A stretch of 64,000 bases of DNA, taken from assembly GCA_964016885.1 (NCBI GenBank), contig OZ024741.1, forward strand, positions 78,306,001 to 78,370,000, read 5' to 3'. A program made the position numbers and the translations under genes. Origin of the DNA: Eledone cirrhosa (taxonomy: Eukaryota). The notes below the pieces were generated by a model that was given only the letters and a program-made list of their open reading frames with translations, did no database searches and was not told where the DNA came from. This document shows positions 5,326 to 48,759 of the stretch, piece by piece (within the stretch, counting starts at the first letter, position 1; the number at the start of each line of letters is the position of its first letter).

Positions 5326-5500
5326 AGGAGTAATGTAAGTGTTTTAACAGTGTATTAGTAAGACAAGAAATGGTGTAAGTGTTATAGCAAAGTATTTGTA
5401 AGACAAGGAATGGTGTAAGTGCTATAGCAGAGTATTAGTAAGACAAGGAGTAATGTAATTAGTAAGATATGAGTAATGTAAGTGTTATCACAGTGTATTA
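5320..5500. repeat. ~41-bp tandem repeat, about 4 copies, next to the splice donor
   Basis: agacaaggagtaatgtaagtgttatagcagagtattagta-like units. Confidence 0.85.
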
Positions 5501-5511
5501 GAATAACTTAC

Positions 5512-7784
5512 AGCATGTTCTGTTTCATCTTCTTCAGAGGAATCAGTACCTGAACTGAGAATGGAATTGGTATTTGGCATTTCAGCACTTCCTGAACCAC
5601 TATCTGAGGGCAAACTCATGAGACTGATTGAGCTCAATGGTCGATCATGCTTGAACGTGGGGCTCTTGTTTGAGATATCATTAATAATGTGCAGTTCAGG
5701 GTGACCAGTTTTAAGGGAAGTATTTACAAAACCTTTGTTGGTTTTTACAGGTATTTCTTTTAATAAGCCATTATATTGTTGATCAGATATAAGTGACTCT
5801 TGGCTATCAGCATTGGCTTTGTCTGCCATATCGTCCTCATTATAATTACGTGGAGGCACACGAGGTGGTGTTGGACTATGCTCTTTTGATTTGTTCTGTG
5901 GTACAGGGGAAGGAGAGTTGCAAGATAATTTGGGAGGGTGAAAAAAGTCTGTTACACCAGTATCAGTGATTTTTTCTGTAACACTGCCTCCATCTTCACT
6001 ATTTGAGCTTGTATCATCACTTTTAGTGCAAGGTGATTTTCTCTGTTCCTGTTCTCGACCATACCACCTGCGAGGTGGGGGAGGAACAGAGCTTTTCGAT
6101 ATGTTTGGGGAAGAGGCATCTGGTCGGTTGATCATTTTGTTACCTCCTCGAGTTGTTGGGGGGCTAGATGTTGACATGTCAGTGGCTTTCTGAAAGCTTT
6201 GACTTTGAGACCGACTTCGATTATTTTCTACATCTTGGCTATCGCTGCGATGGTCTGCAGCATCAGAACGACACCGCCGTAGAAGATTTTTGCGTTGAGG
6301 TTTTGGAGGGCCAGTTTTTCGAGTTTCAGGCTTCTGTCTTGTTAATATAGGTGCTCCAAGTTCTTGAGCTTGTTGGGAAGATGTGAAGTCAACGTGCATA
6401 AACTGGATGTCGGATGCTGTCAACCTAGAATGAGATCGCTTGATTTCCTCATGTTTGGGCCGAGGTGGTCGAGCAGGAGGTTTTGGAGGAGTTAAATTGC
6501 TGACATTCGTGTTAAGAAGGTCAAAAGGAAAATTGTTTGTTCGTATTTTATGTGGTAAGTGCACTTGCTCTTCGGGTTCTTGCCAACTTTTGAAGTATGT
6601 TTGGAACACGCTGATTCTATCAACAGAAGCTGACCTGAGTTTATAATCTCTAACTGGGACTTCAGGGGCTCGCCGCCGAGACCTTTCTGAAGATACCAAG
6701 TTGTCAACGTTTGGTTGAGACTTTAATATATTATTTACACATTCCTCAAATCGTTGTAATGATGTGTCTTCACTGTCTATTTCTTTATAGATACTTTCAT
6801 TGTTTACTGAATGGTTGACATGAGTTGGTTCCGAATGTGTTGATTCTAGTGTTGGGGGCTCACTGAGTGGTTGTGCTATAATGCTGTTCAGTTCATTTGT
6901 TGAACTTGCATCAGAATGGTAATCTGTTGTTGACGGTGCACCACTGTCACCAACAGATTCTGTAGAGTTCTGCCGTTGTAATAGTGAAAGTCGCCGTACA
7001 GGCACGGGACGTTCCCGAGGTTTTGGTCTAGGCTTTGGTTTCACAGGTGGAAGTGGTGGTGTTCTCCTGGTTTCTAAGTTATGTAATTGACTATGTTCAA
7101 AGGAACTTTTATGTGTGGGGTTTTGTTTGTTGTCTGATATTTTCTGGCCAATGATGTTGTTATTATTGTTTTTATCATTATTTAAAGTGTCTAATCGTTC
7201 AGCATCAACAGTGCTTGAAGAATATGACCGACTCTTCACTGTGCTGAAAGTTAGCTTGGTAGCAACTGTTTTAGATGAGAGCAATGATGAGCTTATGGTT
7301 CTTGTGATGACTTTCCTAGAATTTACCTGTGGGATATCAGTTTTGGAGGACAGTTGCTTTTCATCTTTCTTTTCCTTGTCAAAGGTATTAATGTTACTGT
7401 TACCGTTGTTGTTGTTATTATTATTGTTGTTGTTATCGTTAGGTATACAAGTAGTACTAGTTGTGGTAGAAATACTGGTAGAAGTGTTGTTCATGTGGCT
7501 GAGGTTGGTGTTGTTGAGTACGGAATTTAAAATCTTAGTCTGGATGTCATTTTTAGGGAATGGCGATTTCTTCACGGTCACTGGAGTAGAACTTGATGAA
7601 TTGGAAGCAGCACTTCTGGGCGGGTCTGTCCCTGTTGGTTTCTTTAAAGTAGGATGTGGGGGTGTTGTATCTTTGGGTGGTAGTTGTGGTGGTGATGATG
7701 TTGATGATAAAGATGATGATGATGATGATGGCGATGGTGATGATGATAAAGGTGAAGTCGGTGGAGGTGGTGCTTTTCCTTTAC
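5512..7784 (-). CDS. FGD6: FGD5/6-like RhoGEF large Pro/Ser-rich exon (2273 nt)
   Basis: ttttgcAG acceptor at 7785-86 and GTaagt donor at 5510-11. Open frame with phase 1/0, consistent with both neighbours. Contains ORF 5488..7581 with PxxP-rich motifs. Confidence 0.9.
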
Positions 7785-7984
7785 CTGCAAAATAATTAAA
7801 AACAAAAATAAATAAATATAACCAAAATGCAGTTTAAATGTTTATAATTTAACATGGAAGGGACTGTCTTAGAGAATGTCTTTGTAAAGAATCGATTAGA
7901 AAGGAGGAGAATGAAAGTGAAAGACAGTGAAAATAAGTGAGAATTAGAATTGGAGACAGAGAAAAGGTAAAAGGACTCTAAAAC

Positions 7985-12019: not shown

Positions 12020-13511
12020 CATCCTCAGAGTGGTGCCACCAAGTCCCAGGCTCACACAATGTGGCTTTGTATTGAGAAGGGTTTGCTGTGTGGAGAATGA
12101 CCGGCTCCAAAACTGGGGTGCCACTGTGAGAATAGTTCGGCACCGCCAACTGGCATTTCCCTCCTTATAGTGGTGTCATCCAGTGCCGGACTCCGAAACT
12201 GGTTGCGCTGTAAGAGGGGTTTGGCATGGCAATGGGCCTGCCTTTCCTCATAGTGGAGTCACACGTAATTTTATATTGAGTAGGGTTCGTTGCCTGGAAA
12301 GTGTCTTTGAAATTGGGGCACCTCTGTGAAAAGGGTTTGGTGCAGCCAACTGGCCTGTCCCTCTTCATAGTGGTGTCATCCAGTCCCAGGCTGCCAGAGC
12401 CCAGTTTTGTATTGAGAAATGTCTGTTGCGTGGGGAGTGCCCAGCTTCAAAACTGGGGTGCCGCTGTGAGAAGGGTTTGGCATGGCCAACTGGCTTGTCC
12501 CTCCTCATAGTGGTATCACTGTTCCCTTCCCATAGTGGTGCTATCCAATGTCAGGCTCCCAAACTCTGTTTCCGCACCTGTCCCTCCTCATAGTGGTGTC
12601 ATCCAGTACCAGGCACCAAAACTGTGGTAACGTTGAATGCGTTTCACAGGGCTGACTGCCCCTCCCCCCTCAAAGTGGTTTGGTATGGCCAACTGGCCTG
12701 TCCCTCCTCATAATGGAGCCATCTGTAAACATGGTTGGTATTAGGCAACCAGCTGTAAAATACCCTGCCAAATTTACAGTCCTTGCCGAAGCAAGGTGCA
12801 ACACATGGCTAACCCTGGCCAGACTTGCCTCCCAACGTGGATGATCCATCTAATCCATGCAAACATGGAAAAATGGATGTTAAACGATGATGATGATGGT
12901 GAAACTGCAGTGGGTTGGACTTCGTTTGGCCAGATGTTTCTCATAACATGCCCACCCAGCCAGTACACAGGCTCTGTGCAGCCAACTGGTTAGCCTTCCT
13001 GCCATGAACAAGGTATGGTACTGCCAACTGGCCAGACCTGTCTGATAATGGTACCACCCAGTCCCACACAGTAAATGTGGTTGGTGTTAGGAAAGGCATT
13101 CAACAGCTGTAAAAATCTCAGCCAAAATACAGGTTCCACTATGAGCAAGGTTCGACGCAGCCAACTTGCAAGACCCCTTTCATATCAAGACCACCCAGTT
13201 CTACACTGTAAATGTGGTTGGTGTAGGAAGGGCATCCAGCTGTAAAAAATGACCAAATTACAGTTCTGTTTGAGCAAAGTATGACACATCTAACTGGCCA
13301 GAGCCCTCTCATAACAGGGCCACCCAGTTACACACTATAAAGGTGGTTGGTGTTAGGGAGGGTATCTAGCTGTAAAAAAAATGGCCAAAATACAGTTCCA
13401 TTTGAGCAAGGTACAGTTAGCTGTCTAACTGGCCAGACGTGCCTCATAACTTGGACGTCTTGTCAAACCCATGCAAGCATGGAAAATAAGGCGTTAAATG
13501 ATGATGATGAT
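12020..13511 (+). repeat. Tandemly amplified SINE/LINE-tail-derived repeats
   Basis: Recurrent gccaactggcctgtccctcctcatagtgg units, then ~130-bp units containing cacactgtaaatgtggttggtgttaggaagggc. (GAT)n tails at about 12890 and 13500. Confidence 0.75.
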
Positions 13512-19406: not shown

Positions 19407-19819
<413 letters not shown>

Positions 19820-19957
19820 AATTGGAATAAATGCTCTGAAATAGCGATATATATGTGAATATAGACATAGAATATTCGAAAATATTCTGTATGTTTATAA
19901 TAAACATTTTGAAGACCTAATCGCTATAGAATAGAATACGTCACGTATTACAATTAG

Positions 19958-20046
19958 ATTCTCGATAAAAGCAAGGGAAGTAATCTACGCGTTTCATTCT
20001 TGTTAGAAATCATCAGGACTACATATCCAGTGCTTTTATCGAGAAT
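19958..20046 (-). ncRNA. Type I hammerhead ribozyme, family A
   Basis: Reverse complement of the 20611-20699 motif. Confidence 0.85.
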
Positions 20047-20267
20047 GACACAGCTAGAGACTTATAGAATACTTAGCTGTGTACAGGAACTGGTTTGAAA
20101 GAGCGGTTGCCGGTCCGGCAGAAATTAGAAATTGGAATAAATGCTCTGAAATAGCGATATATATGTGAATATAGACATAGAATATTCGAAAATATTCTGT
20201 ATGTTTATAATAAACATTTTGAAGACCTAATCGCTATAGAATAGAATACGTCACGTATTACAATTAG

Positions 20268-20356
20268 ATTCTCGATAAAAGCAAGGGAAGTAATCTACGC
20301 GTTTCATTCTTGTTAGAAATCATCAGGACTACATATCCAGTGCTTTTATCGAGAAT
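20268..20356 (-). ncRNA. Type I hammerhead ribozyme, family A
   Basis: Reverse complement of the 20611-20699 motif. Confidence 0.85.
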
Positions 20357-20610
20357 GACACAGCTAGAGACTTATAGAATACTTAGCTGTGTACAGGAAC
20401 TGGTTTGAAAGAGCGGTTGCCGGTCCGGCAGAAATTAGAAATTGGAATAAATGCTCTGAAATAGCGATATATATGTGAATATAGACATAGAATATTCGAG
20501 CATTTATTCAGAGCATTTATTCCAATTTCTAATTTCTGCCGGACCGGCAACCGCTCTTTCAAACCAGTTCCTGTACACAGCTAAGTATTCTATAAGTCTC
20601 TAGCTGTGTC

Positions 20611-20699
20611 ATTCTCGATAAAAGCACTGGATATGTAGTCCTGATGATTTCTAACAAGAATGAAACGCGTAGATTACTTCCCTTGCTTTTATCGAGAAT
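20611..20699 (+). ncRNA. Type I hammerhead ribozyme, family A
   Basis: gtagtc-CTGATGA-t ttct aaca agaa t-GAAAC-gc-GTA/gattac. Stem I is extended by a 16-bp attctcgataaaagca / tgcttttatcgagaat helix beyond an internal loop. Stem III is the palindrome ACGCGT. Confidence 0.88.
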
Positions 20700-20920
20700 C
20701 TAATTGTAATACGTGACGTATTCTATTCTATAGCGATTAGGTCTTCAAAATGTTTATTATAAACATACAGAATATTTTCGAATATTCTATGTCTATATTC
20801 ACATATATATCGCTATTTCAGAGCATTTATTCCAATTTCTAATTTCTGCCGGACCGGCAACCGCTCTTTCAAACCAGTTCCTGTACACAGCTAAGTATTC
20901 TATAAGTCTCTAGCTGTGTC

Positions 20921-21009
20921 ATTCTCGATAAAAGCACTGGATATGTAGTCCTGATGATTTCTAACAAGAATGAAACGCGTAGATTACTTCCCTTGCTTTT
21001 ATCGAGAAT
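20921..21009 (+). ncRNA. Type I hammerhead ribozyme, family A
   Basis: Same motif, 310 bp downstream. Confidence 0.88.
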
Positions 21010-21093
21010 CTAATTGTAATACGTGACGTATTCTATTCTATAGCGATTAGGTCTTCAAAATGTTTATTATAAACATACAGAATATTTTCGAAT

Positions 21094-24000
21094 CTCTCTC
21101 TCTCTCTCTCTTAGCTACACACACACACACACATATATATATAAGATAAATTCCCGTTCATGTTTATTCACTTTCGCCAAACAATTGCTGCTTCAACTAC
21201 CCCTACTACGGTGTAACCATGTAATCGTAACGTTCACGTTTTTCCTATCTCCTCCACACACCACAATTTCGTACAAACATCCAATCCCGCAAAATCCGAA
21301 ATCTGTATTTTTTGTTATTTATTAAGGTTTAAATACGGTGTTTTTGTCGTATTGAACAGAACAAATCTTGCAGTTTTGCTTTTTGTTACTCGCTGGTAAA
21401 CATTCATAACCTTCCAGCTAGCTACCCCACATCCCTCCCACCCGCCCCCACACACCACCATTCTTAATACGTGGACCAATCATAAGCCAGAGACCCCCCC
21501 CACACGCATCACCATTATTACTATAAGCCAGAGACCCCCCCCCCACACGCATCACCATTATTATTATTACGCGGACCAATCATAAGCCAGAGGCCTATAC
21601 TATCGCTTGCACGGTTGCCTTCGATATATGATGGATGGATGGATTGATGGACGGACTGCGGAATCCTGGAGAGTGGAGGGGAGAGAAAAATCTGGACGCT
21701 CAGAGCGAAAATGCCAATGCTAAAGTCAAATTCACCTCGTGGACGAGAATGCGAGCACTCTTCTTTGTTTCGCCCGCGGATGGCTAACATAACCCCATCT
21801 CCCCCCGCCCCACACCACCCCCACCCTCCAAACGCGATCCAAAACTTCAGAGTTGGTACCATAAATGTAGGCACCCTAAAGGGGCGCGCTAACGAGGTTG
21901 TAGAAATGCTTGAACGTAAGGAGGTCGATGTTTGTTGTATTCAAGAGACCAGGTGGAGGGGTGGGTCTGCTAGATTCATTGAGGGTAAAAAACGATGTTA
22001 TAAGCTTTTCTGGGTGGGAAACGACGATGGGCTGGGTGGAGTAGGAATCATGGTAGCAGAAAAGTGGGCGGATAAGATAATAGACGTAAATAGAGTGAAC
22101 GACAGAATAATTAAAATACGACTTGTCCTCAATAGAACTACGGTGACAGTAATATCTGCGTATGCACCCCAATCCGGACTGCCCGGCACTATAAAAGACA
22201 GATTCTATGAGACACTGATGCTCACTACCTCCCAAATATCTGACAGTGACTATATAATTATTGCAGGCGACCTAAATGGTCACGTTGGGGAACATTGTGA
22301 CGGCTACGACGAAATCCATGGAGGCTATGGGTTTGGTACTAGAAATGAGGAAGGCTCCAGAATCCTGGAATTCTGTGATGCAAATAACCTAACTATCTGT
22401 AACACTAACTTCAAAAAACGTGACAATCACCTGATCACCTATAGATCCGGGGAACACACAAGCCAGGTAGATTATATCCTTACCAGAAGACGTGACAGAG
22501 TGTCTGTTGTAAACACTAAATCCCTCCCCCATGAAGAATGCACCTCCCAACATAGACTGATAATTAGCGACCTCATAGTCAGGTCGAGACGTACTCGACA
22601 GCAGAAGAGGACTATCCTCAGGAGAAAAATATGGAAGCTAAAGGACCCCACAGTCAAAAATAAATTTCAAAACATATTACTTGATGCTTTCGACAGTAAG
22701 GAAGAACACTTAGAGTCGGACAATATAGAGGGACAGTGGGAATTTCTGAAAGCAAACCTGCTGTTGGCCACAGACGAAGTCTGTGGCTGGAGCAGGCCTG
22801 TAGGCAGGAGGAGAGTAACATGGTGGTGGAACAGTAAGGTGGAGGAGTCAATTAAGGCCAAAAAGCAGGCTTGGAAAGTATGGCGGGATGGGGGAAGTAG
22901 AGTAGACTATCAAGTGGCCAGGAGGGAAGCTAGGAGAGAAGTGTACTTAGCAAGAAGGGAAGCTGAGGAAAGAAAGTTCAAGCATGTCCTACAACGCGAT
23001 GACCAAAAACGTGAGGTGTTCAGGATTGCTAGGCAATGCGTCAAGGAAAACCGTGATATTGTCGGGGAGAAGTGTGTACTTAACGATGATGGCATACTTG
23101 CCATCACCGACACTGATAAGAAGGCAGCTTGGAAGTGTCACTATGAAAGGCTACTAAATGAGGAGAATAAATGGGAGAAAGACAGTCTCCCCCATGTCGA
23201 CCCAATAGAGGGACCAGCAGTGTTAGTCGAGGGGAGTATAATAAGTAAGGCAATCAAGGATATGAAGACAGGTAAGGCGGCTGGGCCTTCGGAAATAGTT
23301 GCTGAGATGCTGAAGGCATCTGGCACGGTGGGACACACCATGGTCACCCGCATAGTTAACCAAGTCGTACAGAATGGGGCTGTTCCGAAGGACTGGCATA
23401 GCAGCATCATCGTTAACTGTTATAAGGGTAAAGGAGACGCCCTAGATAGGAGTAACTATAGAGGCATTAAATTAATCGACCAGGTCATGAAGGTCACAGA
23501 AAAAGTAATAGCGCAACTAATCAGAGAGAGAATTGACCTAGATGAAATGCAGTTCGGGTTTGTGTCAGGCAAAAGTACCACAGACGCTCTTTTCATAGTA
23601 CGACAACTACAGGAGAAGTACCTAGCTAAAGGTAAACCCCTCTACTTAGCTTTTGTCGACTTGGAGAAAGCCTTCGACAGAGTCCCCCGCTCCATTATCT
23701 GGTGGGCTCTTAGAAAACTAGGCGTTGACGAATGGCTTGTGAGGGCTATACAAGCCATGTATAAAGAAACAGTCAGCAAGGTTAGAATTAACAACGAATA
23801 TAGTGAAGAGTTTAGCGTAAAAGTTGGCGTCCATCAGGGCTCTGTTCTCAGCCCCCTACTATTTATTATTGCCCTTCAGGCTATAACAGAGGAGTTCAAG
23901 ACAGGCTGCCCATGGGAACTCCTATACGCAGACGACCTGACACTCATAGCGGAATCAATGGCCGAGCTAGAGAAGAAATTCCAAACATGGAAGCACGGCC

Positions 24001-25250
24001 TAGAGTCAAAAGGACTTAAAATTAACCTGGCTAAGACCAAAGTTCTAGTTTGTAGGAAAGAAAACAAGGCGGCGGTCCCTTCTGGGAAATGGTCGTGCTC
24101 GGTGTGTAGGAAAGGCGTAGGTAGAAACTCCATTTTGTGTCCTAAATGCAAAGTATGGGTGCATAAAAGATGTAGTGGGATCACAGGTAAGCTAACTAAG
24201 AACATAGATTTTACATGTGGCCGGTGTTCTGGTGCAATAAGTAGCAGCAAGTGCCCACAAACTACTAGCTCTTTCAATTGCGCAGAGGGTTCTATAGAAA
24301 TAGTGGACAGCTTCCGTTACCTGGGCGATAAAATCAGCAGTGGGGGAGGGTGCTCTGAAAGTACTGTAGCTAGAGTCAGAACTGGTTGGAAAAAGTTCAG
24401 AGAGCTTATACCACTATTAGCTGCTAAAGGGTTCTCCCTAAAAATGAAAGGCAGGTTGTACGATGCCTGCATACGAACAGCAATGTTGCATGGCAGTGAG
24501 ACCTGGGCATTGTGTGCAGAGGATATACGCAGACTAGAGAGGAACGAAGCTTGCATGCTCCGCTGGATGTGTAACAGTAATATACGTGAATGGCAAAGCA
24601 TAAACGAACTAAGGAAAAAATTAGAGATAAGAGGGATCAGATGTTGTTTACTCGAGAGAAGGCTACGTTGGTATGGACACGTGATGCGCATGAAAGTCGA
24701 TAGCTGTATAACAAAGTGCAGGGCAATAAAGATAGACGGTAGCCACGGAATAGGCAGACCTAGAAAAACCTGGGACGAGCTGATAAACTCCGACCTCACA
24801 CACTTACACCTCTCCAAGACAATGTCACTGGACCGAGACCTTTGGCGGTACTCAGTAACAGAGAAGACCCGCCTTGCCAGTAGGCATCTCTAACAAAATA
24901 CACCCCGTCCCACCACCACCACCCCCACCCCATCCCCACCACCCCGTCCTATGTAAAGTTATGTTGGTGCCGCGCCATCCGGGCCGAAACAAATGAGATC
25001 GTGTAGGTGTCACGACAAAAAAACACACAGTCCACGCTGTAATGTGGCCGTGTAGGCAACACGGTAAAAACCTCCCAGACCCACACTGTAAATGTGGTTG
25101 GTGTTAGGAAGGGCATCCAACTGTAGAAAACCTGCCAGACAGTCCTATGCGAGCAAGACAATCACTCTTGCCTCAAGTGGGACTACCCCCGTCCAAACCC
25201 ATGCAAGCGTGGAACACGGACGTTAAACGTTGATGATGATGATGATGATG
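21094..25250 (+). mobile_element. Apparently full-length RTE-type LINE inserted into the 310-bp array
   Basis: The array unit is split precisely at ttcgaat|attctatg. The insert has a 5' region with CCAAT-containing tandem repeats, a single ORF, a 3' UTR and a (GAT)n tail. No clear target-site duplication. Confidence 0.95.
21711..24893 (+). CDS. LINE ORF: APE endonuclease, reverse transcriptase and PHD-type Cys/His finger (1060 aa)
   Basis: TINVGTL, CIQETRW, AGDLNGH and SQHRL (APE); AFVDLEKAFD, GVHQGSVLSP and YADD (RT); CSVC..CPKC..WVHKRC..CGRC. No stops. Confidence 0.97.
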   Translation: MPMLKSNSPRGRECEHSSLFRPRMANITPSPPAPHHPHPPNAIQNFRVGTINVGTLKGRANEVVEMLERKEVDVCCIQETRWRGGSARFIEGKKRCYKLFWVGNDDGLGGVGIMVAEKWADKIIDVNRVNDRIIKIRLVLNRTTVTVISAYAPQSGLPGTIKDRFYETLMLTTSQISDSDYIIIAGDLNGHVGEHCDGYDEIHGGYGFGTRNEEGSRILEFCDANNLTICNTNFKKRDNHLITYRSGEHTSQVDYILTRRRDRVSVVNTKSLPHEECTSQHRLIISDLIVRSRRTRQQKRTILRRKIWKLKDPTVKNKFQNILLDAFDSKEEHLESDNIEGQWEFLKANLLLATDEVCGWSRPVGRRRVTWWWNSKVEESIKAKKQAWKVWRDGGSRVDYQVARREARREVYLARREAEERKFKHVLQRDDQKREVFRIARQCVKENRDIVGEKCVLNDDGILAITDTDKKAAWKCHYERLLNEENKWEKDSLPHVDPIEGPAVLVEGSIISKAIKDMKTGKAAGPSEIVAEMLKASGTVGHTMVTRIVNQVVQNGAVPKDWHSSIIVNCYKGKGDALDRSNYRGIKLIDQVMKVTEKVIAQLIRERIDLDEMQFGFVSGKSTTDALFIVRQLQEKYLAKGKPLYLAFVDLEKAFDRVPRSIIWWALRKLGVDEWLVRAIQAMYKETVSKVRINNEYSEEFSVKVGVHQGSVLSPLLFIIALQAITEEFKTGCPWELLYADDLTLIAESMAELEKKFQTWKHGLESKGLKINLAKTKVLVCRKENKAAVPSGKWSCSVCRKGVGRNSILCPKCKVWVHKRCSGITGKLTKNIDFTCGRCSGAISSSKCPQTTSSFNCAEGSIEIVDSFRYLGDKISSGGGCSESTVARVRTGWKKFRELIPLLAAKGFSLKMKGRLYDACIRTAMLHGSETWALCAEDIRRLERNEACMLRWMCNSNIREWQSINELRKKLEIRGIRCCLLERRLRWYGHVMRMKVDSCITKCRAIKIDGSHGIGRPRKTWDELINSDLTHLHLSKTMSLDRDLWRYSVTEKTRLASRHL

Positions 25251-25575
25251 ATTCTATGTCTATATTCACATATATATCGCTATTTCAGAGCATTTATTCC
25301 AATTTCTAATTTCTGCCGGACCGGCAACCGCTCTTTCAAACCAGTTCCTGTACACAGCTAAGTATTCTATAAGTCTCTAGCTGTGTCATTCTCGATAAAA
25401 GCACTGGATATGTAGTCCTGATGATTTCTAACAAGAATGAAACGCGTAGATTACTTCCCTTGCTTTTATCGAGAATCTAATTGTAATACGTGACGTATTC
25501 TATTCTATAGCGATTAGGTCTTCAAAATGTTTATTATAAACATACAGAATATTTTCGAATATTCTATGTCTATAT
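25251..25575 (+). repeat. Remaining ~1 unit of the 310-bp array
   Basis: Continues the unit broken at 21093 and ends in (TA)n. Confidence 0.95.
25388..25476 (+). ncRNA. Type I hammerhead ribozyme, family A
   Basis: Same motif, with CTGATGA at 25418. Confidence 0.88.
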
Positions 25576-32996: not shown

Positions 32997-34100
32997 TTTT
33001 ATGTCCACTTTTCCACGCTAGCATGGGTTAGACGGGTTGTCCTGTTGTGGGCAGTGTCTGGTCGGCTGACCATGCCTTGCTCATACAGGAACTGATTTGG
33101 CTTTATTTCTACAGCTGGATGCCCTTCCTAACACCAACCTCATTTACAGTGAGTGCTGGGTGCTTTTTTCCGTGGCACCTACACATCCACTTTACAGTGT
33201 GGGCTGGGTGCTTTTTTGCCGTGGCACCTCCACGACCACTTTGCAGTGGGAGGGTTTGGGGGCATATTGTCTATATGCTTCAGCTTCGCTTGTACCCATG
33301 GGAGGTCGGGTACTCTGTATTACTGTGTGACGCCAGAGGTCACGGTCGTGTGTCATCGCCTTTGAGAGGTGTAATTGGGTAAGGTCGGTTTTTATCACCT
33401 CATCCCAGGTTTTCTTGGGTCTCCCCACTCCGTGGTTTCCATTGACTTCTAGTGCTCTGCACCTTTTTATGCAGCTGTCATCCTTCATACGCATCACATG
33501 TCCATACCAACGCAACCGCCTCTCCTGCACACAGTATTTGATTCCTCTTATGCTCAGTCTCTCTCTCAATTCATTTATGCTTTGTCGTTCGCGTATATTA
33601 CTATTACACATCCATCGGAGCATGCAGGCTTCGTTTCTCTCCAATCTACGTAAGTCTTCCACCTTCAGCGCCCAGGTCTCACTACCATGTAACATTGCTG
33701 TTCGGATACACACATCATACAGTCTGCTTTTCATTTTGAGGGAGAAGCCTTTTGCAGCTAGCAGTGGCAGTAGTTCCCTGAACTTCTTCCATCCAGTTCT
33801 CACCCTAGTTATTGTACTTTCTGAACACCCACCTCTGCTGCTAATTCGGTCACCTAGGTAGCAGAAGCTGTCTACTGTTTCTACAGAGCCCTCCCAGAGA
33901 CTGGTGGTACTTGTTTCCTCTGGCTGTTTGCTGCTTGCTGTCCCAGCACAGCTGCTGCATGTGAAGCCTACATTCTTAATTAAGCTTCCTGAGATCCCGC
34001 TACATCTCTTGTGTACCCAATGTTTGCATTTGGGGCAGAGAATGGAGTTCCTATCTACACCTCTCCTACATACTGAGCAAGACCATTTCCCTGAGGGGAA
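32997..34100 (-). mobile_element. 5'-truncated RTE LINE, diverged subfamily 2
   Basis: ORF 33192..34151 is homologous to the PHD and C-terminal part of the full ORF. Starts at (TA)n. Confidence 0.92.
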
Positions 34101-34172
34101 TATATATATATATAAACCCTTGCATATGTACAGTCTCATATACATAGACACACAAGTGCATATGTATGGGTT

Positions 34173-34203
<31 letters not shown>

Positions 34204-34630
34204 CATCATCATCACCACCACAATTTAACGTCCATTTTCCATGCTAGCGTGTGTTAGACAAGCTATGTCTCGTTATTAGGCAAGCCAAGTTAGATGACAG
34301 TGTTCTACTTATATAAAACTGATTTTGGTTTGGTTTCTACAGCTGGATGCCCTGCCTAAGGTTAACCACATTTATAGTGTGTACTGGGTGCTTTTTTTCG
34401 TGACACCTATAGTGTCCACTATATAGTGTGGAGTGGGTGCTGATTGTCGTGACACCTATACGACTACTTTACAGTGTGGTGTGGGCACTTTTGGTCATGA
34501 CACACGATCACTTTACAGTGTGGCCTGGGCACTTTTTGTCATGACACACGATCACTTTACAGTATGGGCTAGGCACTTTTTGTCATGTCATCAACACTAC
34601 CACTTTATGTATATATATATATATATATAT

Positions 34631-41929: not shown

Positions 41930-42440
41930 GAATGTGGCTTTTTAGCCCGGCCAATGATCTAAAATGTCTTGCACAGAGTCGGCAACCAAAACATTCATTG
42001 GCAATAGCCGGCTGTGGTTGGAGTTCATGTACTTTTGCATGTCGTTTGAGCCTCCTGCTGATTTACATTCTCTACCACATGCTTGGCAAGCATGATGAGT
42101 AGCATCTCCAACATCAGCCTGGTAGTCAACCACTGGTCTTACTTTATGACTGCGAAGATGACTTTCGAGTCCAGCTTTGCTTAGGCAGAGTCTCGCACAG
42201 ACGCTGCATGTCAACACCAGAGGAGGACCCTCGCTGTCTGGAAGTGCAACAGCAATGCCCTTCCTCACATCCCGCTTTACTTTCTCGTATGCGATTCGAG
42301 ATGCCTCAAAGGCAACTTTTCCCTCATATACAGTCTTTCTCCATTTATTACGACCAGCAGCAATATTTTCCCATGTATCAACAGAGATGTTAGCGTCTTT
42401 CAAAGAGGCTTTCAAGGAATCCTTATACCTCTTTTTTGGT
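41930..42440 (-). mobile_element. 3' end of a different RTE/BovB-like LINE with a C2H2 finger
   Basis: KASLK..TWENIAAGRNKWR..CSVCARLCLSKAGLESHLRSH. Confidence 0.8.
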
Positions 42441-43218: not shown

Positions 43219-44111
43219 CGAGGTGTGTCAGAAAAGTTCCAGGACTGATGTCACAAAAGATTTATTTCAAACCCAAACTTCACACTAAGAGTTTTCTCCT
43301 TCAAAGTAATCCCCTGGAGTATGTAACTGTAATCTTAGCTCTCTGCAGCGATCAAACTTTTTTCTTTATAATTTTATAAACATGTCCTCTGTTTCAGGTC
43401 GTCAAGCAATGATCACAGAGCAACGAACAAACTTGAAAACTCCGTCAGAAGCACTGGGATTGCTGCAGCAAGTGTATGGAGATAAGACGATGTCATGTTC
43501 ACGTATTTTTGAGTGGTGCAAGAGGTTTAAAGAAGGACGCGAGGACGTGAAAGATGACCCCAAGAGCGGAAGGCCCTCAACAACCAGGACTGAGGTCAAC
43601 GTTGAGCGCGTCAGGCAGATGGGGCGTAGTGATCGTGGGCTGACTGTTCGACTGATGGCAAATGAGCCGGGCATGAATCGGGACAGCATCTGGAAGATTC
43701 TCACTGAAGATTTGGATATGCGGAAAGTCTGCGCGAAGATGGTGCCAAAACTGCTGAACGATAACCAGAGGGTCGACGCATGCAAGTGTGCCAGGACATC
43801 CTCGAGCATCTTGAAACCTAATCAGACTTGCTAGGGACAGTCATCACTGGTGATGAGTCATGGATTTTCGAGTACGATCTGGAGAGGACCCGTTTTGAAG
43901 ACGTGGATGACATCAAAAAGGCCATGAGGACGGAACTGCGAAGGATCCTGGAAGAATCCTTCCAGGAGTGCATGCAAGCGTGGCAGAAAAGGATGGAAAA
44001 GTGCATTAGACTCCAGGGGGTTACTTTGAAGGAGAAAACTCCTAGTGTGAAGTTAGGGTTTGAAATAAATCTTTTGTGACATCAGTCCTGGAACTCTTCT
44101 GACACACCTTG
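43219..44111 (+). mobile_element. Internally deleted mariner transposon
   Basis: ~55-bp terminal inverted repeats (cgaggtgtgtcagaaaagttccaggactgatgtcacaaaagatttatttcaaaccc) and TA flanks. Peptides FEWCKRFKEGREDVKDDPKSGRP and ITGDESWIFEYD. Confidence 0.93.
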
Positions 44112-48447: not shown

Positions 48448-48759
48448 TCTTTGTTTCGCCCGTGGATGGCTAACATCCGCGCCATCCAGGCCGAAACAAA
48501 TGAGATCGTGTAGGTGTCACGACAAAAAAACACACAGTCCACGCTGTAATGTGGCCGTGTAGGCAACACGGTAAAAACCTCCCAGACCCACACTGTAAAT
48601 GTGGTTGGTGTTAGGAAGGGCATCCAACTGTAGAAAACCTGCCAGACAGTCCTATGCGAGCAAGAAAATCACTCTTGCCTCAAGTGGGACTACCCCCGTC
48701 CAAACCCATGCAAGCGTGGAACACGGACGTTAAACGATGATGATGATGATGATGATGAT
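48448..48759 (+). mobile_element. Internally deleted RTE copy: 29 nt from the ORF start fused to the 3' UTR
   Basis: 48448-48476 matches 21762-21790 at 28/29 positions. 48477-48759 matches 24970-25250. Confidence 0.88.

Follow-up and report, generated by a model that had tools for sequence, protein, structure and literature searches.

The element and its family

The window analysed here is a stretch of 64,000 nucleotides from the Eledone cirrhosa genome (assembly GCA_964016885.1, contig OZ024741.1, positions 78,306,001 to 78,370,000, forward strand; genome size 3.0 Gb), and all coordinates are positions within it. It contains a young long interspersed nuclear element (LINE) of RTE type with an intact open reading frame (ORF). 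The primary concern of this study is a pair of complementary segments in this LINE, the 5' arm near the start of the ORF and the 3' arm in the 3' untranslated region (UTR), together with genomic insertions in which the two arms are joined and the ORF is skipped. The features of the element are as follows.

21094 to 25252, plus strand: young RTE-type LINE copy, 5'-truncated within its 5' UTR and sitting in a 310-bp tandem repeat unit
21711 to 24893, plus strand: intact single ORF of 1060 amino acids with APE endonuclease, reverse transcriptase (RT) and PHD finger; the start at 21711 is placed by frame conservation
21759 to 21793, plus strand: 5' arm of the stem, likely coding (codons 17-28), from duplex folding and family alignment
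21780 to 21782, plus strand: ATG beneath the stem, likely an internal methionine; ACG in a large subfamily
21794 to 21829, plus strand: C-rich tract inside the 5' arm, a Pro/His-rich linker of variable length
about 24096 to 24227, plus strand: PHD finger within the RT region, a Pfam match
24899 to 24949, plus strand: C-rich tract inside the 3' arm, read from the sequence
24958 to 24998, plus strand: 3' arm of the stem, in the 3' UTR, from duplex folding and family alignment
24967 to 24973, plus strand: 7-nt bulge between the two helices, from duplex folding
25232 to 25252, plus strand: (GAT)n tail, read from the sequence

The family is young and large, with frequent 5' truncation: a genome pattern search gives 20,407 matches to a 3' motif and 3,418 to an ORF-start motif. 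Relatives of the window copy extend upstream of the position equivalent to 21094, and longer copies (L003, L007, and L028) have tandem 5'-UTR monomers spaced 543-636 bp, like the tandem monomers of mouse L1 promoters; the 5' UTRs of the subfamilies diverge rapidly. No target-site duplication is visible at the window copy, and elsewhere duplications are masked by (TA)n flanks. The same PHD match occurs in many unnamed relatives (33-53% identity, among the relatives listed). Membership of the RTE clade is assumed from the architecture that we associate with it, a single ORF with APE and RT and a microsatellite tail, and no named RTE element is among the best 120 of the 163 relatives listed.

The complementary arms

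An initial annotation of this DNA had proposed that 21764-21793 and 24958-24993 are complementary over about 25 bp in two helices, each bordered on the inside by a C-rich tract. The arms are present at these positions, duplex prediction gives two helices separated by the 7-nt bulge (29 pairs, -35.1 kcal/mol), and C-rich tracts are found inside both arms, on the same strand. With flanking sequence, pairs between 21759-62 and 24995-98 are gained and the energy is -40.7 kcal/mol (-35 to -41 overall). The stem is tied for rank 1 among 76,636 pairs of 40-nt windows in the element, and the predicted minimum free energy (MFE) structure of 21400-25245 contains it as 32 bp. When the start region was paired with dinucleotide-shuffled 3' UTR, the observed energy of -40.2 kcal/mol compared with -26.9 +/- 3.4 for the shuffles (z = -4.0; 1 of 150 as low). 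In this comparison with shuffled controls, which the initial annotation had called for, energy alone is suggestive rather than decisive. The case from the window copy alone is moderate; the support comes from the family.

The 5' arm lies at least 670 nt from the 5' end in the window copy and more than 1.2 kb from it in copies with tandem 5'-UTR monomers, and it is because longer copies bear these monomers that the arm is taken to be remote from the RNA's 5' terminus. Between the 3' arm and the tail lie about 240 nt. The panhandle that had been envisaged as bringing the ends of the RNA together therefore needs a different geometry: the arm-to-arm insertions described below support a meeting of the arms, but the arms are internal, the termini are not joined, and the ORF is looped out.

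Junction copies

One arm-to-arm insertion lies in the window itself and is predicted to fold as a local hairpin.

48448 to 48759, plus strand: junction copy with the ORF skipped, in a (TA)n site; 48448-48476 corresponds to 21762-21790 and 48477-48759 to 24970-25252

A genome pattern search gives 25 arm-to-arm junction matches, with 0 for the reversed pattern. One event is present at 3 places with shared flanks, and merging these leaves 23 events; related searches added to the first bring the total to 31 independent events (29 from one compiled set plus L226 and L343). Dropped as chance before counting were L334-L336, L338, L339, L342, L404, L405, L407, and about 19 unrelated rows, while L406 and one further match are possible junctions, left uncounted. 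Three matched controls in which one side of the pattern was moved by 23-146 nt gave 0, 0, and 2 matches, and the 2 have similar flanks. Of 16 junctions that leave 21790/91 for another place in the element, 13 have their second end at 24964-24976, which makes up 13 nt out of 3.2 kb (from the first 100 of 116 rows, of which 50 were verified on fetched loci and the others taken from the list). The junction copies are rare; the roughly 31 found, against 20,407 3' ends, are a minimum that depends on the patterns searched. The arm junction is not among the 15 joints listed of 355 in contigs of 4 runs covering the element.

Nearly all junction copies (30/31) start at 21755-21783, compared with 2 of 83 ORF-keeping copies (Fisher P 5e-24), and the 3' part resumes at 24969-24976 in 27 of the 30 tabulated. 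They are spread over the 3'-UTR tree from the oldest to the youngest subfamily (26 copies) and occur in all subfamilies, their arm variants match the subfamily of their own 3' UTR, and (GAT)n tails are present in 23 of 25. This scatter, together with the subfamily-matched arms, the tails, and the clustered starts, means that they are repeated retrotransposition events, and are neither later deletions nor one amplified family. What they likely preserve, as genomic fossils, are template switches by the RT across a stem that forms in vivo. It is very improbable that the complementarity is a coincidence and the junction copies are post-insertion deletions or one amplified short family. Other window pairs do attain equal energy, and the vicinity of the 3' arm often shows short internal deletions; however, the matched controls contrast with the 25 arm-to-arm matches, later deletions would retain the long 5' parts that 30 of the 31 copies do not have, and the copies are polyphyletic with many distinct junctions.

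The breakpoints also bear on another explanation, in which the arms pair and the junction copies are made from processed RNA, either after nuclease trimming to the duplex or from a 20-35 nt sense fragment annealed to the 3' arm. On the 3' fragment the RT would run out of template at the 5' end and jump end to end onto the annealed piece, and a form acting in trans would need no intact panhandle. This would account for all three breakpoints together, for the length of the 5' pieces (16-49 nt, median 28.5), for junction microhomology of 0-3 nt, and for the 13 of 30 pieces that end at base 21790, a U before an A, UpA steps being labile in RNA. The 28-nt piece of a control event, L408/L409, can also pair through a palindrome (by eye). 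We nevertheless regard a processed-RNA origin as unlikely: arm variants that fit the 3'-UTR subfamily favour events in cis, the 3' breaks are not opposite nucleotides 10-11 of the piece, where PIWI slicing would presumably place them, and piece start and piece end are uncorrelated (Spearman 0.05). The palindrome is an 8-nt sequence found both in the loop (21854-21861) and in the bulge of older subfamilies (24965-24972), and L408/L409 links the two places.

A pause of the RT at the bulge was also considered; the initial hint from 4 copies did not hold, and no pause is visible since plain truncations have no excess there. In ORF-keeping copies, 5' truncations are mildly in excess just upstream of the 5' arm (21715-21755), with about 9 events in 40 nt compared with 10 over the next 137 nt, as judged by eye and post hoc.

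Covariation and evolution of the arms

The arms were aligned in 49 full-length copies with 87-100% ORF identity: 48 in which both arms were found, from 60 + 20 fetched stretches (L184 was lost there), plus the window copy. Pair 21767-24990 is A-T in the 13 oldest copies and G-C in the other 36, with 0 mismatched and both changes on one branch; a G.U intermediate occurs in one junction copy. Pair 21774-24983 is A-T in 6 copies, C.T in 9, C.C in 2, C-G in 31, and a gap in 1, and the order of change is A-T to C.T to C-G. The covariation across subfamilies that the initial annotation had suggested looking for is thus found, the arms being conserved and covarying with two pairs changed on both sides. 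In 18 junction copies, 94.1% of cells are paired, compared with 28-49% for slid controls, and 0 of 500 shuffles is as high, although relatedness inflates the shuffle test.

Subfamily changes were picked by hand, and each was compared in score with every single change in a natural copy that has the older state, natural backgrounds being used to avoid defining pairs from the youngest copy; scoring of the 5' arm covered 15 of 17 changes. On the plus-strand RNA, 5 of 12 changes in the 3' arm are stabilising, vs 1.3 expected (P about 0.006), and 10 of 12 are not destabilising. Scored on the minus strand, the same changes fit less well (P 0.045 for stabilising, 0.24 for not destabilising). This comparison bears on the proposal that the stem forms not in RNA but in single-stranded cDNA at integration, where a 3' flap would be trimmed and second-strand synthesis would slip across the base of the stem. 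Such a stem would account for the 5' ends at the stem edge, minus-strand energies equal or exceed those of the plus strand, and many plus-strand A.C mismatches are G.T on the cDNA. The proposal is improbable, given the better fit of the 3'-arm substitutions to plus-strand RNA, the tolerance of G.U at 21785, 21792, and 21761, the G.U state of the sole intermediate at 21767-24990, and its need for a long cDNA released from its RNA. Template switching on RNA, processed RNA, and a cDNA stem all require the arms to pair.

Predicted duplex energies run from about -18 to -31 kcal/mol in the oldest intact copies, through -43 to -45 in those of middle age, to -29 to -41 in the youngest. In the subfamily with ACG at 21780 (L201, L204, L187), the predicted duplex shifts register and bulge bases pair, which partly makes up for the loss from ATG to ACG. 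The 3' arm looks to be derived, as judged by eye, from a degenerate repeat unit of about 49 bp in the 3' UTR. An origin by inverted duplication of the 5' arm is disfavoured because the oldest copies pair worst and the 3' arm resembles the 3'-UTR repeat unit. ADAR editing as a source of A-to-G gains was rejected at the depth used, the stem adenines being almost invariant in 116 copies and a further listing giving one variant. Degenerate tandem units of 44-49 bp lie in the 3' UTR at 24999-25130, and a motif of this UTR is common to many short repeats of the window, including 13005-13414, 33135-33248, and 34365-34587; it may resemble a conserved RTE 5'-UTR segment.

Beyond the family, 37 metagenome loci hold distant relatives; of the 4 examined, 0 are full-length, and L297 (54% amino acid identity) is 5'-truncated, with a best duplex of -27.0 kcal/mol. 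A second abundant APE-RT family (sister family B; window 33192-34175, minus strand, and L165-L169) has an ORF 74.5% identical to that of the LINE and a similar design of the 3' tail, without the 3' arm. The stem reads as a lineage-specific structure under weak selection in which the non-coding arm follows the coding arm, and selection on it looks real but weak.

The ATG beneath the stem

The initial annotation had also suggested that the stem masks a start codon and could switch the RNA between translation and reverse transcription. ATG 21780 does lie in the central helix, and in family B, too, an ATG is found about as far from the APE motif. However, in-frame ATGs at 21711 and 21717 precede it, and the distance from an upstream anchor is divisible by 3 in all but 2 of 74 copies, or 72 (lengths 66-81 nt, with several subfamily indels; the anchor fell on another in-frame codon in 10 copies), while across the downstream C-tract the frame holds in only 46 of 74. 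One subfamily, with 548 pattern matches, has ACG at 21780 in 99 of the first 100 listed. Changes in the 5' arm are mostly synonymous in the 21711 frame. The frame kept upstream and the ACG subfamily thus indicate that the 5' arm is likely coding sequence and that the ATG under the stem is likely internal. ATG 21711, in turn, is in neither of two helices of the predicted MFE, the one of 32 bp and its neighbour at 21737-21754. ACG could act as a weak start, or the ACG subfamily could move in trans, so the case against ATG 21780 is strong but indirect; a translational switch by masking of this codon, which is not the likely initiator, is nonetheless most improbable.

Proposed mechanism and points against it

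Because the arms are complementary, covary, and are joined in 31 ORF-skipping insertions, pairing of the arms in LINE RNA in vivo, with RT switching template across the stem and leaving the junction copies, is on balance a probable explanation. In a ribosome-free RNA, codons 17-28 would pair with the 3' UTR and the ORF would be looped out. During target-primed reverse transcription (TPRT), the RT would enter from the tail and displace the outer helix; at the bulge (24964-24976) it would occasionally shift to the tethered partner strand (21788-21803) and copy the 16-49 nt found in junction copies, and the product would then integrate. Copying would stop near the outer edge of the stem. The stem may close only on untranslated full-length RNA, because ribosomes in elongation would have to melt it 50 nt downstream of the start codon. 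A tentative suggestion for its role is that it favours full-length, no-longer-translated RNA as template; it is also possible that it has little or no function.

Several observations weigh against this explanation. The next-best unrelated window pairs are close to the stem in energy (-38.0, -37.1, and -36.2 kcal/mol), and duplex energies on the minus strand are as low as on the plus strand. Predicted folding support varies with the segments chosen: in two-strand partition functions the outer helix has P = 1.0, 0.26, 1.0, 0.83, and <0.3, at least 0.83 in 3 of 5 ensembles, and the inner helix is weak (P = 0.12-0.39). Only 2 pairs change on both sides, and the subfamily changes that were scored, with their backgrounds, were chosen by hand. 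Changes in the 5' arm at 21770, 21773, 21774, and 21781 break pairs at +4 to +7 kcal/mol in successful subfamilies, parsimony gives 10 losses of 5'-arm pairing vs 6 gains, and the ACG subfamily prospers with a duplex of -29 to -35 kcal/mol. The 3' arm is not better conserved than its surroundings, with 0.31 internal changes per site vs 0.11 in the 3' UTR beyond. The one copy of family B that was folded has no such stem, and its best duplex (-29.8 kcal/mol) is elsewhere and interrupted. The bulge shows no enrichment of plain truncations (85 reverse-strand matches, vs 177 at a control window). The stem edge may not be what sets the short 5' part, given that the control event L408/L409 has a 28-nt piece as well; a fixed piece length may apply instead of anchoring at that edge.

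Other features of the window

The 310-bp units are 100% identical and form inverted arrays at 19819-21093 and 25253-25570, and the LINE interrupts one unit. An open frame of 781 amino acids at 5488-7833 (minus strand), of low complexity and Pro/Ser-rich, is probably a large host exon. We take 43310-43834 (plus strand) to be a fragment resembling the N-terminus of a mariner-type transposase, and 41942-42439 (minus strand) to be a LINE C-terminal fragment with C2H2-like motifs. An Rfam search of the region gave no match near threshold.

Relation to known systems and implications

Pairing between 5' and 3' parts of an RNA is already known for Ty1 and for HIV-1, whose RNA is reportedly circularised in this way; the junction copies are new here. 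In two papers on Ty1 cyclisation (PMC3592414, PMC7969010), a 5'-proximal segment of the retroelement RNA, CYC5, pairs with a 3'-proximal segment, CYC3. The LINE stem has the same geometry of complementary 5'- and 3'-proximal segments, conserved with covariation at the two pairs above. Unlike Ty1, the LINE is a non-LTR (long terminal repeat) element, with no terminal direct repeat among the families listed, and its stem is restricted to one family and may not be required for reverse transcription or transposition. In TPRT, neither a tRNA primer nor strand transfer is expected.

The octopus element RTE-2_OV, an RTE-clade LINE, is described in part of PMC9115989 as having a single ORF of about 1.1 k amino acids with APE and RT and a microsatellite tail. 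By description, the LINE studied here likewise has one ORF with APE and RT and a tail of this kind, and differs in that its RT region contains a PHD finger. The RTE RNA structure described in PMC6007223 is a hairpin formed locally at the 3' terminus, whereas the LINE stem is long-range. The initial annotation had known of no such pairing in RTE elements, and none was found for any LINE in the parts of the open-access literature covered.

Template jumps are one proposed origin of short internally deleted elements (SIDEs) and bipartite LINEs such as R2 SIDE, Persaeus, RIME, and Bov-A, according to extracts of PMC3414825 and PMC6740152. The junction copies likewise join a LINE 5' part to a 3' part with the ORF removed. 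They differ in having no 5' UTR, as their starts show, in being single, polyphyletic events that are not amplified as a family, and in that their breakpoints fall within a complementary pair rather than chiefly on direct repeats. A passage of PMC5786205 states that few LINE groups make bipartite derivatives, "for unknown reasons", and that RTE 5' regions recur in short interspersed nuclear elements (SINEs). A speculative and rather unlikely extension of these comparisons is that a cyclisation stem like that of Ty1 has evolved in a non-LTR retrotransposon, between its coding 5' region and its 3' UTR, and would license full-length, untranslated RNA for TPRT, with U-turns of the RT across the stem spawning RTE bipartite derivatives and SINE bodies. 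If cyclisation is real, genomic junctions could be read as in vivo RNA proximity data.

Should the template switch across an in vivo stem be correct, the junction copies would be germline in vivo evidence of a 3-kb RNA contact, obtained without experiment, and any other LINE that is abundant could be read in this way. The junction copies would also make testable why few LINE groups, such as RTE, yield internally deleted derivatives, the question raised in that passage of PMC5786205.

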